DNA from: Acidobacteriota bacterium
Lineage (GTDB): Bacteria; Acidobacteriota; UBA890; WLXD01
Assembly (NCBI GenBank): GCA_963666055.2
Contig: CAXWPH010000015.1
Span: 448,001 to 512,000, forward strand
DNA: 64,000 nt
Reading direction: 5' to 3'
Part shown: piece by piece, positions 49,223 through 53,810 of the stretch
Numbering within the stretch: the stretch's first letter is position 1
Layout: the number at the start of each line of letters is the position of its first letter
Position numbers and translations under genes: made by a program
Notes under the pieces: generated by a model
Told to the model about the DNA's origin: nothing
The model's database searches: none
The model's input: the letters and a program-made list of their open reading frames with translations, nothing else

Positions 49223-49317
49223 GATTCGACTCGTTCGGGGTCTCGTCGAGGCGCCTGGCGACTCGTATCGCAACGCTCAGAAGAACGCCAGCCGCAGGCG
49301 CTGCGCGCTCCAAAAAG

Positions 49318-49390
49318 TGGCGGTGGAGGGACTTGAACCCCCGACTCGGCGGATATGAGCCGCCTGCTCTGCCGACTGAGCTACACCGCC
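49318..49390 (-). tRNA. trnM: tRNA with CAT anticodon, probably elongator Met; CCA not encoded
   Basis: GGCGGTG/CACCGCC acceptor, loop CTCATAT, GGGGG-TTCAAGT-CCCTC. Confidence 0.9.
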
Positions 49391-49721: not shown

Positions 49722-50246
49722 ATGCGCAAGAATACGCCGACGATCTGCACGATCGGCCTGCTCGCCCTTGTTGGGCTTGGGTGCACCGAACACCAAGGAC
49801 AGATTGGTGTCTTCCTGACGGGCTTAACCACCGGAACCACCTTCACGACCACCGCGCAACAGGTAACCGTAGAGGTTATCGGCGTCGACGTGCTCGACAG
49901 CGACTCGGGCGCCTTCGTCACCCTGTCAGCCGGGAGCCAGCTATACGAGATTCTCGGCCTCGCCGGAAACGAGCAGCTCCTGGCGCTAGCCAACCAGCTC
50001 GACGAGGGCACCTACCATCAGATCCGGGTGCGTTTCTCCGAGGCCAACAGCAGGGTGATCAACGCCGTCGGTCGGAGCGAAAAGCTGAAGATCGATCCCG
50101 AGTCGGTCACTGTGTCGATCCCCTTCAGCGTGCAGACTGACGGCAGCACCCGCGTCATCATCGCGATGGACGTAGGTCGGAGCCTATCGCGAAAGGCCAA
50201 CGGCACGTGGATGCTGCGACCCGTGTTGCGTCCCGCAATCGAGTAG
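49722..50246 (+). CDS. DUF4382-like lipoprotein
   Basis: Lipobox GLGC; GTYHQIRV, D..RS, LRPV C-terminal motif. Confidence 0.7.
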   Translation: MRKNTPTICTIGLLALVGLGCTEHQGQIGVFLTGLTTGTTFTTTAQQVTVEVIGVDVLDSDSGAFVTLSAGSQLYEILGLAGNEQLLALANQLDEGTYHQIRVRFSEANSRVINAVGRSEKLKIDPESVTVSIPFSVQTDGSTRVIIAMDVGRSLSRKANGTWMLRPVLRPAIE

Positions 50247-50329
50247 CACGACGCATCGCCCTAACCAGGTCCGCCACACTTCCACCACGGCCTGCTAGCC
50301 GAAGCCGGCGCCTGCTTCCTGGTCCGCGT

Positions 50330-50592
50330 CGTGTGATCGCGATGGCCGTCGTGCACAGGTAGTACGCCATGGTCTTGCCGCCGATTCGTCCGAGCTTCTT
50401 CAGATCACCGACGGTAGCGGTACCAACCAGCAGCGAGGAAAACACCAACGGCACCACGACTAGCCGTATCAAGCGCAGGAACAGATCGCCGATCGGTCTG
50501 AGCATCATGGCGCCCTCGGCAAACACCGCGCCGACCAAAATGCCGACGAGCATGCCGATAGCGATCTGTGTAGGCAGCGAGAGCCGTCTCAT
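50330..50592 (-). pseudogene. Dicarboxylate/amino acid:cation symporter, N-terminal fragment
   Basis: GDLFLRLIRLVVVPLVFSSL, LGRIGGKTMAYY; similarity ends after about 88 aa. Confidence 0.8.
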
Positions 50593-50717: not shown

Positions 50718-51266
50718 TCAGGAAGCCTTGGCGCGATCGCGATCGCCGGACTGCTTGCGCGCCTCGATGCAATCATCGAGGGCTGCCTCGACGTCCGGTT
50801 GCACGATCTCCTCTGAACGCCCTTGCACCATAGCGATCTCGGAGATGATCAGATGCTTGGCCTGGTCGTACATGCGCTTCTCGCGATAGGAGAGCGCCTT
50901 GCGCTGCGTCAGGTGCTGGAGGTTTTTGAGAACGTCCGCCATCTCGAAAAGATGACCCGAACGCATTTTCTCGGCGTTCTCCTTGTACCGACCCTTCCAG
51001 TTGCTATGGGTCTCGAAGTCGGGGTCGCGCAGATGCTTGAACAGCCTTCTGATCTGCGTCTTGCCAAAGATCTTGCGTAGCCCGACCGCCTTGGAGTTGC
51101 CGACCGGCACCATCACCGTGGTTTCGTTGGCGAAGAGCCGGAGATGATAGAAGTCTTGATCGAGCCCGGCGATTTGGGTCCGTTTGACGTCCTCGATAAT
51201 CCCCACGCCATGGTTCGGATAGACGACATAGTCGCCGACTTCAAAGCGCAAAGGGCTCTCCTGCAT
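50718..51266 (-). CDS. carD: CarD family transcriptional regulator
   Basis: FEVGDYVVYPNHGVG, VMVPV, VGLR, NWKGRY, LSYREKRM. Confidence 0.92.
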   Translation of the reverse strand: MQESPLRFEVGDYVVYPNHGVGIIEDVKRTQIAGLDQDFYHLRLFANETTVMVPVGNSKAVGLRKIFGKTQIRRLFKHLRDPDFETHSNWKGRYKENAEKMRSGHLFEMADVLKNLQHLTQRKALSYREKRMYDQAKHLIISEIAMVQGRSEEIVQPDVEAALDDCIEARKQSGDRDRAKAS

Positions 51267-51307
51267 GTTTGCTGCGTAGGTTGCTGCGGAGCGGGCGGGG
51301 AATTCAC

Positions 51308-51336
51308 ATTCTATCCGAAAATGAGGCAAAACTCAA
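51308..51336 (-). promoter_or_regulatory. sigma70-type promoter of carD
   Basis: TTGAGT-17 bp-TAGAAT on the minus strand. Confidence 0.6.
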
Positions 51337-51417
51337 GACGCCGAGCGGCCCGCAGAGCCCTTTGCTGCGGGCGATTTCTGGATCCGGCGGCGCAGAACAA
51401 CGCCGCGCGGCATCCGG

Positions 51418-51445
51418 TTGACAAGCGCGGCCACGCGGCCATAAT
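51418..51445 (+). promoter_or_regulatory. sigma70-type promoter of the putative ncRNA
   Basis: TTGACA-16 bp-CATAAT. Confidence 0.65.
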
Positions 51446-51450
51446 CAGGG

Positions 51451-51747
51451 GCGGTTCGGGCGATCCTCATGGCCGCGTGGCGCGCGCCTGCGGTGTCCGG
51501 CTACAACAAACAATCAGGCGATACCGCTTCGCAACATGGCTCGTCCGTCAGGGCGCCGGTAACACCGATGTGCGGCGCAGCCCCGACTGCACATCGGACG
51601 GGAGGCTTACTGGTCGGGCTTCCGAAGCCACACGCGGGCCGGTGTGAACGTGGCGAAAGGGGCAAACCTCGTTCCGAGTCCTGGTTGGCCGGTGCCAATG
51701 GCCGTGTTGCGGGGAGGCTGTTCGTGGGGATCGCCCGTTCCGTTTTT
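51451..51747 (+). ncRNA. Putative structured ncRNA (about 295 nt), family unknown
   Basis: Own promoter, three nested long-range helices with G-U pairs, internal hairpins, T-tract end, no credible ORF. Confidence 0.65.
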
Positions 51748-51755
51748 CGGGACCG

Positions 51756-53810
51756 TTACTGGGCTGGGGCCTGGCCAGGGATCAAGTTCGCGGCAACACG
51801 CAAATCAGCCGCAGCGCGCAGGCTCACCGCAGCCGCAACGAGCTCGACTGCAGCGGCACGAATCGATGACGCCAAATCATCGAGCTCCCTGGCGAGCGCA
51901 CCATCATCGTCACGGCGCAGGGCGTGCTGAACCCCGGGCAGCAGCTCGGCGGCGTACAGATCGCCGGCGGACGGAGCGTAGAAGAGGTTCTTGAACCAGG
52001 GGCGAGCCGAGAGTCCGCCAGGCCGGGTAAACGCCCTCTCGACCCGTAATAGGTGATCGTTGACCCGTTGTAGTCCTATCGGCCTCTCGCCGGCCGACGC
52101 TCGCTGCAGCACCTGACGTGTGTTGGCCTCTAGCTCGCCGGCGGCCGCCGCCAGGGCGGCTATGGCGCGGTGCTGACGATAGCCAGGATCGCCGAATCGG
52201 TCCACGAACGTATGGGTGTCGTAGGCAGAGTGGTATACCCCCGAGCTCCCTGAGAATCCGAGCCCGACGGTAGGCACTCCGAGCACGGCCGCAAACGTCG
52301 CGTCGTCGGAGCCACCTGCCGGTAGCGGCACCCGCGGCTCGCCGCTGGGCAGCATGGCGGCGCGCCGGCGCCAAGCGTCGTAGATGCTGGTCGTCGCTAA
52401 CATCGGGTCGGCGACTACTCGCGTCGCGGAGCGGATGAGCGTGCGCAAGGAAGGCGATGCAGTGGCCGAGAAGTAGGGGCCGCCAACGACCCCGTCGAGA
52501 TTGATGTAGGCAACCGCGGAGCTGCGAAGCTGGTCCGCATTGGCTTCTGTCCATTCGGTGGAGCCGATCAAGCCCCACTCCTCGCCGTCCCACGCGGCGA
52601 ACAGAATGCTGCGACGAGGCGGCCAGCCGGCGGCGCTCAGCTCTGCCAGCGCGCGCGCCGCCTCCAGCATCGCCACCGTTCCCGAAAGATTGTCCACCGC
52701 GCCAGCCGTCCAGGAGTCGTAGTGCGCGCCGAGGATTACCCACTCCTGTGGCCGGTGGCGTCCGCGAAGCGTCCCCACGACGTTGCGGATTCTCCGTGTC
52801 GAGATGTCATGAAGCTCGACGCGCACACGCGCCCGAACGCCGCCGCCGCCGACGTGATAGTGAAAGGGCAGCGCCCCCTGCCAGCCAGCCGGCGCCTCGG
52901 TGCCGGCCAGATGTCGCAGAAGCTCCGCCGCCGACCCGTAACCCAGGGCGACGACCGGGATCGACGGAAGGGGTGTGACCGGAGGCGACTGGCCGGCTAT
53001 GGCAGCTCCGGCGGTGGCCGGCCGGCCCGGCGTGTTCGGATCACCCGGTGGTCCGATGCGCACTGAGCCGCGCTGCACACCGGTCCACGGCCGGAACGGA
53101 CCGCGCGGATACACGTCGCCACGGAAGTAGCCGTCGTCGAACGGATCTGAGTACAGCAACACGGCTGCGGCGGCGGCCGCCTCGGCATTGTGAACCTTGG
53201 CGCCGCGAAACACCTGGCCGTATCGCATCACGATGATCTTGCCGGCAGTATCGACACGCAGCGCCCGGAGCGCGGCGAAGTCAGCCGGCCTCCCGTAGTT
53301 GGCGTAGACCACGCCTGCCTCTACATCCCCGGCGGCTGAGTACGCTGCCACCGCGGGATACTGACTCGCACCGCTGGCCGCATCCTCGGGGAGCGGTTCC
53401 TCCTCGAGGCTCAGCGGCAGCGGCAGCGGCGAGAGGCGATCCACTCGCGCCGACCGCGCGTGTGGCAACAGCACGTCGTACTCATGCACCTGGACTTCAA
53501 GGCCCCAGCCAGCCATGAGGTCGGCGATCTCGCCCGCGGCGCGGGCCGCTGCAGGCGTGCCCGCTACCCTTGCCTCACTGCCAAGTCGATGCGCCATGGC
53601 GCGCAAGCGATCGGTGTCGGGAATGGCTGCGAGGCGCACCTGGCGCTCGATGGCGGCACCCCATGGGGCCTGGAAACCGCGTAAGCGAGTCGCCCCGGGT
53701 ACCTCGCCTCGTCCGGGTAAAGCCGACAACAGCATGGCCGCAGCCAGGCAACCACGGAAGGCTGTACGTGGCAGACTGGAGCTGGAGTTCCGTCGGTCGG
53801 TCGACAACAT
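51756..53810 (-). CDS. Glutamate carboxypeptidase II-like M28 peptidase (PA and TfR dimerisation domains)
   Basis: VYANYG, VQRGS, GAHYDSW, DNLSG, WDGEEWGLIGS, YHSAYDT, RPWFKN. Confidence 0.9.
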   Translation of the reverse strand: MLSTDRRNSSSSLPRTAFRGCLAAAMLLSALPGRGEVPGATRLRGFQAPWGAAIERQVRLAAIPDTDRLRAMAHRLGSEARVAGTPAAARAAGEIADLMAGWGLEVQVHEYDVLLPHARSARVDRLSPLPLPLSLEEEPLPEDAASGASQYPAVAAYSAAGDVEAGVVYANYGRPADFAALRALRVDTAGKIIVMRYGQVFRGAKVHNAEAAAAAAVLLYSDPFDDGYFRGDVYPRGPFRPWTGVQRGSVRIGPPGDPNTPGRPATAGAAIAGQSPPVTPLPSIPVVALGYGSAAELLRHLAGTEAPAGWQGALPFHYHVGGGGVRARVRVELHDISTRRIRNVVGTLRGRHRPQEWVILGAHYDSWTAGAVDNLSGTVAMLEAARALAELSAAGWPPRRSILFAAWDGEEWGLIGSTEWTEANADQLRSSAVAYINLDGVVGGPYFSATASPSLRTLIRSATRVVADPMLATTSIYDAWRRRAAMLPSGEPRVPLPAGGSDDATFAAVLGVPTVGLGFSGSSGVYHSAYDTHTFVDRFGDPGYRQHRAIAALAAAAGELEANTRQVLQRASAGERPIGLQRVNDHLLRVERAFTRPGGLSARPWFKNLFYAPSAGDLYAAELLPGVQHALRRDDDGALARELDDLASSIRAAAVELVAAAVSLRAAADLRVAANLIPGQAPAQ

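Follow-up and report, generated by a model that had tools for sequence, protein, structure and literature searches.

In 6S RNA, two long helices flank an open central bubble; the RNA binds the sigma70 holoenzyme and serves as the template for pRNA. Bacterial Y RNAs combine a Ro60-binding stem with a variable effector domain, and sponges of the CsrB/RsmY type, which occur as paralogues, are built from repeated modules with GGA hairpin loops and have CsrA as their partner. Lineages that lack 6S RNA have other intergenic RNAs that bind RNA polymerase (RNAP), Ms1 (~300 nt) and, in Corynebacterium, CoRP (516 nt), and the available portions of the two reports propose that each species has one such RNAP-binding RNA type (PMC11077062, PMC9130861). 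According to the same portions, Ms1 of Actinobacteria has a central bubble, short terminal hairpins and a conserved HAD-hydrolase neighbor, whereas CoRP lies among tRNA genes (PMC9130861, PMC11077062). Of the larger RNAs, GOLLD, ROOL, and OLE form oligomers (PMC12286853, in the part available), and the k-turn of OLE is bound by YbxF/OapC (PMC9723947, likewise in part).

Large structured RNAs are few in bacteria, and the family presented here is uncatalogued and has a clearly modular plan. Paper searches at the level of listings and abstract openings turned up no account of an RNA of this kind from Acidobacteriota, although one could be present in supplementary files or in motif collections beyond Rfam 15; the main text of PMC11109978 does not mention Acidobacteriota.

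Results

A structured RNA gene lies between carD and an M28 peptidase gene

The window, i.e. the whole 64,000-nt stretch of DNA that was analyzed, carries two minus-strand genes, carD (50718..51266; PF02559 and PF21095) and an M28 peptidase gene (51756..53810; PF04389), with a structured non-coding RNA of ~295 nt (51452..51747, plus strand) between them. The ends of the RNA were inferred from promoter spacing and from a U tract. Its sigma70-type promoter (51418..51445, plus strand), which had been proposed in the preliminary description, has the form TTGACA-16-CATAAT (−35 at 51418-51423, −10 at 51440-51445) and matches 11/12 consensus bases; two promoter-like sites were seen in 51000-52200, where 0.1 were expected. 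A promoter-pattern scan also places a carD promoter-like site at 51336-51308 on the minus strand, so that the −35 boxes of the divergent RNA and carD promoters are ~80 bp apart. A TTGAC hexamer is found upstream of all 13 carD-linked homologues. The T tract previously taken as the end of the gene (51743..51747, plus strand) follows the closing stem and is the likely 3' end. Most homologues have 3-7 T after the stem, and the tract is degenerate in three congeners. The convergent M28 peptidase gene ends 9 nt beyond the U tract and is the same neighbor at all seven homologue loci checked.

The many G-U pairs had been read as favoring a plus-strand RNA, and folding agrees. The plus strand has a z score of −2.68 and folds better than 199/200 shuffles (one as good), whereas the minus strand has a z score of −0.97, with 35/200 shuffles as good. 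The RNA also shows more conservation than the intergenic DNA upstream of it (9/9 comparisons). Searched against Rfam 15, the RNA had no match at E ≤10, which bears out the novelty claimed for it. The absence of RNase P, SRP, and tmRNA signatures, noted earlier, was likewise upheld, with the corresponding genes located elsewhere in the genome. SRP RNA, tmRNA, and tRNA were rejected as identities on these grounds, there being no model match at the locus. A resemblance to P8 and P15 of RNase P RNA had suggested an RNase P RNA paralogue. This was rejected, since RF00010 does not match the locus and the local score against the host RNase P RNA was reached by 19-170 of 200 shuffles across all 13 RNAs.

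In public RNA libraries, 14 runs contain a small share of the sequence words of the region. The well-matching metatranscriptome contigs (four runs, three studies; three contigs free of mismatches), which show neither strand nor level, all lie inside 51459-51729. Contigs from two studies end at 51727-51729 with no loose ends, a weak hint at a discrete 3' end. Contig depth was 6-101 for the carD-linked RNA and >1,200 for a 460-nt paralogue (see below) in the same three runs, values that cannot rank expression. No contig covers carD, the M28 gene, or the flanks of the 460-nt paralogue, which was not counted as evidence. Taken together, these findings support a conserved, free-standing, plus-strand structured non-coding RNA gene without a catalogued family.

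Other features were recorded in the same genome. Downstream of carD lies a fragment of an SDF dicarboxylate symporter gene (window 50158-50592, minus strand; profile positions 2-82 of 387 matched). A tRNA with a CAT anticodon (window 49317-49390, minus strand) is found directly upstream of tilS and, from this position, may be a lysidine-modified tRNA-Ile instead of tRNA-Met. ARAGORN called one candidate tRNA-Pyl (CTA) and two candidate tRNA-SeC in the host genome (G000:C5:65608-65685, C6:7932-8029, and C13:66090-66187).

Homologues favor a branched rod over the fold first proposed

Paired cells and two-sided changes were counted on an unfitted alignment of 10 homologues. A rod fold leaves 83.6% of cells paired, with 27/97 pairs changed on both sides, and the fold of the preliminary description, which likewise beats 500/500 shuffles, leaves 78.9% paired with 26 two-sided pairs. 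The two folds have two helices in common, and the aligned sequences are kin. Because covariation at the level of the whole structure does not separate the two folds, the rod was preferred on per-homologue ensembles. In these, a nested helix (51527-51540/51701-51714) has 12.7 expected pairs in the host genome and ≤0.1 in 9/9 homologues, a third helix (51552-51560/51688-51696) has 7.0 versus ≤1.1, and a hairpin at 51627-51654 has 7.7 versus ≤1.0. As modeled, the inner helices first proposed are the minimum-energy fold of the host genome only. The rod helices P5 and P6 have ~7-10 expected pairs in 8/9 homologues, as assessed by partition functions, although in the host genome the minimum-energy fold is more stable than the rod by 9.6 kcal/mol.

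The conserved plan predicted from these analyses consists of a closing stem, a handle, a ~45-bp rod with a variable bulge, a three-way junction with a side arm, and a branched tip. Of the 16-bp terminal helix originally drawn at 51457-51472/51721-51737, the 12 pairs of P1 (51457-51468/51726-51737) stand, with 100% of cells paired. P1 and P2 (51470-51474; 98% paired) make up the 5' strand of the closing stem and handle (51457..51476, plus strand), which is common to paralogues. The 3' strand of the handle (51712..51737, plus strand) reads GGGAGGC, followed by bulges of 3 nt and 1 nt and then by the closing stem, and is mostly invariant across the 10 homologues. The 5' strand of the rod (51476..51518, plus strand) forms P3 (51476-51484/51703-51711), P5 (51497-51501/51688-51692), and P6 (51512-51518/51680-51686), in which 5/7 pairs are changed on both sides. 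An A/C tract described as unpaired at 51501-51514 is indeed present in the host, and in the conserved rod fold would be a one-sided bulge (51502-51511); it is, however, 4 nt shorter in 4/4 congeners and replaced in other genera.

The apical domain (51521..51645, plus strand) begins with P7/P8 (51521-51532/51634-51645), which closes a branch with a hairpin at 51542-51555 and is predicted in just 6/9 homologues. Helix P10 (51556-51562/51607-51613, plus strand) is 100% paired, with 4/7 pairs changed on both sides, and the apical hairpin at 51565-51597 (plus strand), already recognized in the preliminary description, has 91.5% of cells paired. A second invariant GGGAGG loop lies at 51600-51605 (plus strand) of this domain. 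The side arm at the three-way junction (51646..51674, plus strand) was placed by fold and alignment, and its motif is also found in three long forms from the sister family. The GGGGC of the arm (51659-51663) is complementary to the apical loop (51578-51584), so that the two might pair; the complementarity is kept in 10/10 carD-linked homologues, among which there are no two-sided changes.

The carD link is probably positional

The host belongs to an uncultured class of Acidobacteriota represented by 26 genomes, all of one order, that fall into two families, its own (f1) and a sister family (f2). We retrieved carD loci from 30 genomes. The RNA lies opposite carD in 9/10 other f1 genomes; in the remaining one, carD and the peptidase gene are adjacent on a single contig and the RNA is absent. 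A long form (336-350 nt) lies opposite carD in 3/10 f2 genomes in which carD was found, i.e. 3/15 f2 genomes overall; it agrees with the f1 RNA in promoter position, closing stem, side-arm motif, and GGGAGG strand. carD is therefore present without the RNA at 1/10 f1 and 7/10 f2 loci (8/20 class loci in other genomes). In total, 13 copies of the carD-linked subfamily lie opposite carD, and a 14th, from a metagenome (L070), was outside the carD check.

In other classes of Acidobacteriota, the divergent carD slot is occupied by tRNA-Leu(CAA) at 5/9 loci (4/8 without the unpublished genome G047). Because a tRNA fills this slot, it is probably an old stable-RNA promoter position, and the link of the RNA to carD is probably positional. 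The argument that the back-to-back position points to RNAP or CarD binding is correspondingly weak, paralogues being located elsewhere and carD occurring without the RNA. In the host genome, tRNA-Leu(CAA) is found 22 kb past the RNA. It is absent within 20 kb in five other class genomes, so no RNA/tRNA-Leu(CAA) genomic island is claimed.

The carD-linked RNA belongs to a class-restricted family with a common handle

The carD-linked RNA is a member of a class-restricted family of stand-alone RNAs that share an end handle and have sizes of about 100, 175, 280, 340, and 349-510 nt. One degenerate pattern for the 3' strand of the handle occurs in 15/18 class genomes and 0/383 other Acidobacteriota; since the family members themselves supplied the pattern, the latter figure alone counts as a test. 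When 31 RNAs of four size classes were aligned by their ends, handle sequence, bulges, and end distance were kept, whereas interiors were unrelated. The carD-linked RNA has the whole family plan, i.e. a closing stem, a GGCY helix, a bulged GGGAGGC strand, a promoter, and a U tail. A two-end profile built from 16 non-carD paralogues of other genomes ranked it second among distinct loci in the 5.7-Mb genome, with 35.2 bits compared with 25.4 for the next locus and 23.2 for the best score in the reversed genome. The 3' sequence of the handle alone gave E 0.41 for the carD-linked RNA.

Model searches connect the size classes. A model of ten f1 RNAs found RNAs of 174-178 nt elsewhere in 8/15 f2 genomes (E 5.5e-11 to 1.5e-4, rough values). 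In the reverse search, a model of the 175-nt form gave E 0.006-0.05 for the carD-linked RNA, which it did not find genome-wide. The same model found full-length copies in 12/15 f2 genomes and one f1 genome, as well as 100-nt matches in ten f2 genomes, six of which were inspected. Each inspected paralogue combines a TTGAC promoter with a closing stem and a U tail and is without a match in Rfam. The 174-178-nt form, a rod, is the simplest member and is often present in two copies per genome. Among neighbors of paralogues are gltA/degP, an SNF transporter gene, and pdxH; of the two 175-nt paralogues in f2 (L192:1030-1204, L200:1501-1674, and related loci), one is adjacent to the SNF transporter gene and the other is flanked by gltA and degP. 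The 100-nt paralogue (L207:1501-1600, L221:1501-1601) has a mean column identity of 92% over six copies; it is not SRP RNA and has no match in Rfam. In small marine genomes (L209, L219, and L220), a 175-nt gene of type a consists of its 3' half only, has lost its promoter and abuts a HEAT-repeat gene, an apparent pseudogene.

The host genome also contains, by motif scan, a many-armed 460-nt paralogue (L249:1219-1680, plus strand; G000:C3:134718-135177). Its stalk is that of the 175-nt form, GCAA loops cap its arms, and its internal loops are rich in purines; it has a fold z score of −7.5 and does not match Rfam. At 349-510 nt, the large paralogue is found in eight other f1 genomes, and in a ninth a 175-nt form occupies the same locus. 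It has 3-6 GNRA-capped arms, the number varying between genera, compared with 0-1 GNRA hairpins in carD-linked RNAs. The 175-nt and large forms contain what we take to be a k-turn-like loop. The 460-nt paralogue was present in 4/4 RNA runs, which had been chosen with the carD region, in contigs confined to the gene. A joint in one contig goes back 402 nt, which is too thin for a circular form to be claimed.

Beyond these genomes, a pattern scan of metagenomes gave at least 119 stretches, and among the 80 that were model-searched there was one true homologue (L070, of f1 type); the f1 model is blind to the long f2 form, metagenome copies of which would thus be missed. Viral contigs, phages, and plasmids gave no match to the RNA, and four weak model matches outside the class (E 2e-4 to 5e-3) look on reading like coding DNA.

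6S RNA was not found in the host class

Rfam 6S models matched 0/26 class genomes, 12 of which are ≥90% complete, versus 24/35 other Acidobacteriota. A phylum model from 19 acidobacterial 6S RNAs, with which a 6S RNA left out of the model still scored 102.9 bits, gave the same split, bar one 90-nt match in the host genome (E 0.013). In other Acidobacteriota, 6S genes (153-188 nt) lie mostly between zapA and rny. In the host and five other class genomes, this slot holds ~170-270 nt of unconserved DNA with no 6S signature; in the host the gap is ~200 nt, on another contig than the RNA (L243:852-1050; G000:C1:92251-92450), and perhaps holds a decayed gene. zapA was not found in 5/10 other class genomes queried, where the slot is unreadable. 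Of seven other Acidobacteriota without a 6S match, six had nothing 6S-like after zapA, and the handle pattern was absent as well. G059 has a diverged 6S RNA directly after zapA (L327:1270-1441, minus strand; E 1.5e-6 with the phylum model) that the genome-wide Rfam search missed.

Discussion

The RNA gene described here is real and apparently uncatalogued, and it is part of a larger family that is of more interest than the single locus; the function of the RNA we infer. The best explanation, to which we give a probability of roughly 40%, is by analogy that the carD-linked RNA is an RNAP-binding stand-in for 6S RNA. Transcription from the sigma70 promoter would yield a stable RNA, in which polymerase would be bound by the rod that all members have in common, long and irregular and with purine-rich internal loops, and the apical domain, which varies, would adjust this binding or multiply it. 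The carD-linked copy would be an accessory paralogue, because several genomes are without it. This explanation is consistent with the lack of 6S matches in 26 class genomes and of a 6S signature in the six zapA-rny slots read, with the 6S size and frequent duplication of the simplest paralogue (174-178 nt), with a family that spans 6S to CoRP sizes, with the 460-nt paralogue being in all four RNA runs, and with the precedent of Ms1 and CoRP. However, an open bubble is not conserved, nor is the A/C tract, and neither sequence nor models show similarity to 6S RNA. Moreover, the link with the loss of 6S RNA amounts to a single evolutionary event, and other 6S-less Acidobacteriota are without the handle pattern. 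Finally, a handle whose sequence and distance from the ends do not vary fits a specific protein site better than a DNA mimic.

That last point leads to an alternative that we rate almost as probable, in which one dedicated protein binds the common bulged handle and the apical domains recruit or soak up different partners, the many-armed paralogue being a multivalent sponge or scaffold (cf. Y RNAs with Ro60 and Csr RNAs with CsrA). On this alternative, four or five RNAs of 100-510 nt would plug into one protein via the handle and carry different cargo domains. One cargo domain would grow by repeated GNRA-capped arms, from 175 to 510 nt within one family, and the carD-linked RNA would represent one cargo type. 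The constancy of the handle over 31 RNAs with unrelated interiors argues for such a modular system, as do the second rank of the carD-linked RNA in the two-end profile, the 3-6 GNRA-capped arms of the large paralogue, and the k-turn-like loop. The handle 3' sequence alone is less telling (E 0.41), no RNA-binding gene is among the neighbors with a Pfam match, and candidate proteins were not found: a TROVE/Ro60 gene in 0/6 class genomes searched (the same search was positive in 2/14 controls), and csrA (PF02599) and an L7Ae/YbxF gene in the host genome. The absence of these proteins speaks instead for the RNAP-binding reading. It is unlikely that the RNA acts through its architecture alone, i.e. 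that it serves as a scaffold, binds a ligand, or is a catalyst by virtue of folding or self-assembly via loop-loop pairing and GNRA and purine-rich loops. The strongly folded, many-armed 460-nt paralogue, the apical-loop/side-arm complementarity in 10/10 homologues, and the oligomers of GOLLD, ROOL, and OLE (PMC12286853, in the part available) would suit such a role, but carD-linked RNAs have at most one GNRA hairpin, the loop-loop pairing lacks two-sided changes, and no Rfam ribozyme or riboswitch matches. A CarD-specific regulatory role, be it through binding of the RNA to CarD or through an effect of its transcription on the divergent carD promoter, seems more improbable still: 13 copies opposite carD and −35 boxes ~80 bp apart would suit it, but the same slot holds tRNA-Leu(CAA) at 5/9 loci of other classes, paralogues are located elsewhere, and 8/20 class loci have carD without the RNA. 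We give very little credence to the locus not being an RNA gene at all but a gene for a small protein, a long terminator, or GC-rich DNA that folds by chance. ORFs of 116-167 codons do cross the region on the plus strand, and the modest fold z score (−2.7) and the 9.6 kcal/mol by which the conserved fold exceeds the host minimum could be read this way. Nevertheless, a small protein gene was rejected, since no reading frame stays open across homologues and length differences are not multiples of three; the 27/97 pairs with two-sided change, the conservation above that of upstream intergenic DNA (9/9), and, as a weak hint, the RNA contigs of two studies that end at 51727-51729 also argue for an RNA.

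If the family does bind RNAP, it would join 6S, Ms1, and CoRP as a fourth structural solution and would be a test of the proposal that a polymerase-bound RNA is abundant in every bacterium. Should the handle be bound by another protein, the family would define a new ribonucleoprotein system. The members of 100, 175, 295, and 460 nt are a natural deletion series, with which the question is testable without culturing the host.

By the tests run, the carD-linked RNA is outside 6S, Ms1, Y RNA, Csr, RNase P, SRP, and tmRNA, although its family shares traits with several of them. It resembles CsrB/RsmY-type sponges in its several paralogues and repeated modules, and the large paralogue is GGA-rich (5.5 per 100 nt), but the predicted helices place most GGA in internal loops, and the carD-linked RNA has 1.7 GGA per 100 nt. 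With Y RNAs the family shares a bulged helix near paired ends, a U tail, a variable apical cargo, and several paralogues, whereas its bulges are on the 3' strand and there is no Rfam match. Like OLE, GOLLD, ROOL, and raiA, it is large and structured, with a largely open function and a k-turn-like loop in the 175-nt and large paralogues; unlike them, it has no Rfam match, is restricted to one class of Acidobacteriota, and varies in arm number between genera. The family spans the sizes of both Ms1 and CoRP, and 6S RNA was likewise not found in its host class. The carD-linked RNA differs from them in its neighbors (carD and the M28 peptidase gene) and in having no Rfam match at E ≤10, CoRP being set apart by its description; RNAP binding, proposed here, has been shown for Ms1 and CoRP, which the available portions of their reports do not describe as multi-paralogue families (PMC9130861, PMC11077062). 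The likeness to 6S RNA (RF00013) is that of a free-standing RNA whose rod is long and irregular and has a closing stem, and it extends to the 175-nt paralogues, which are 6S-sized and often present in two copies. The carD-linked RNA matches neither RF00013 nor the acidobacterial 6S model, is not at the zapA-rny slot, and has a predicted three-way junction where the bubble would sit, a branched tip, and a side arm. What sets the present family further apart from 6S RNA is its invariant handle, which is common to RNAs of 100-510 nt.
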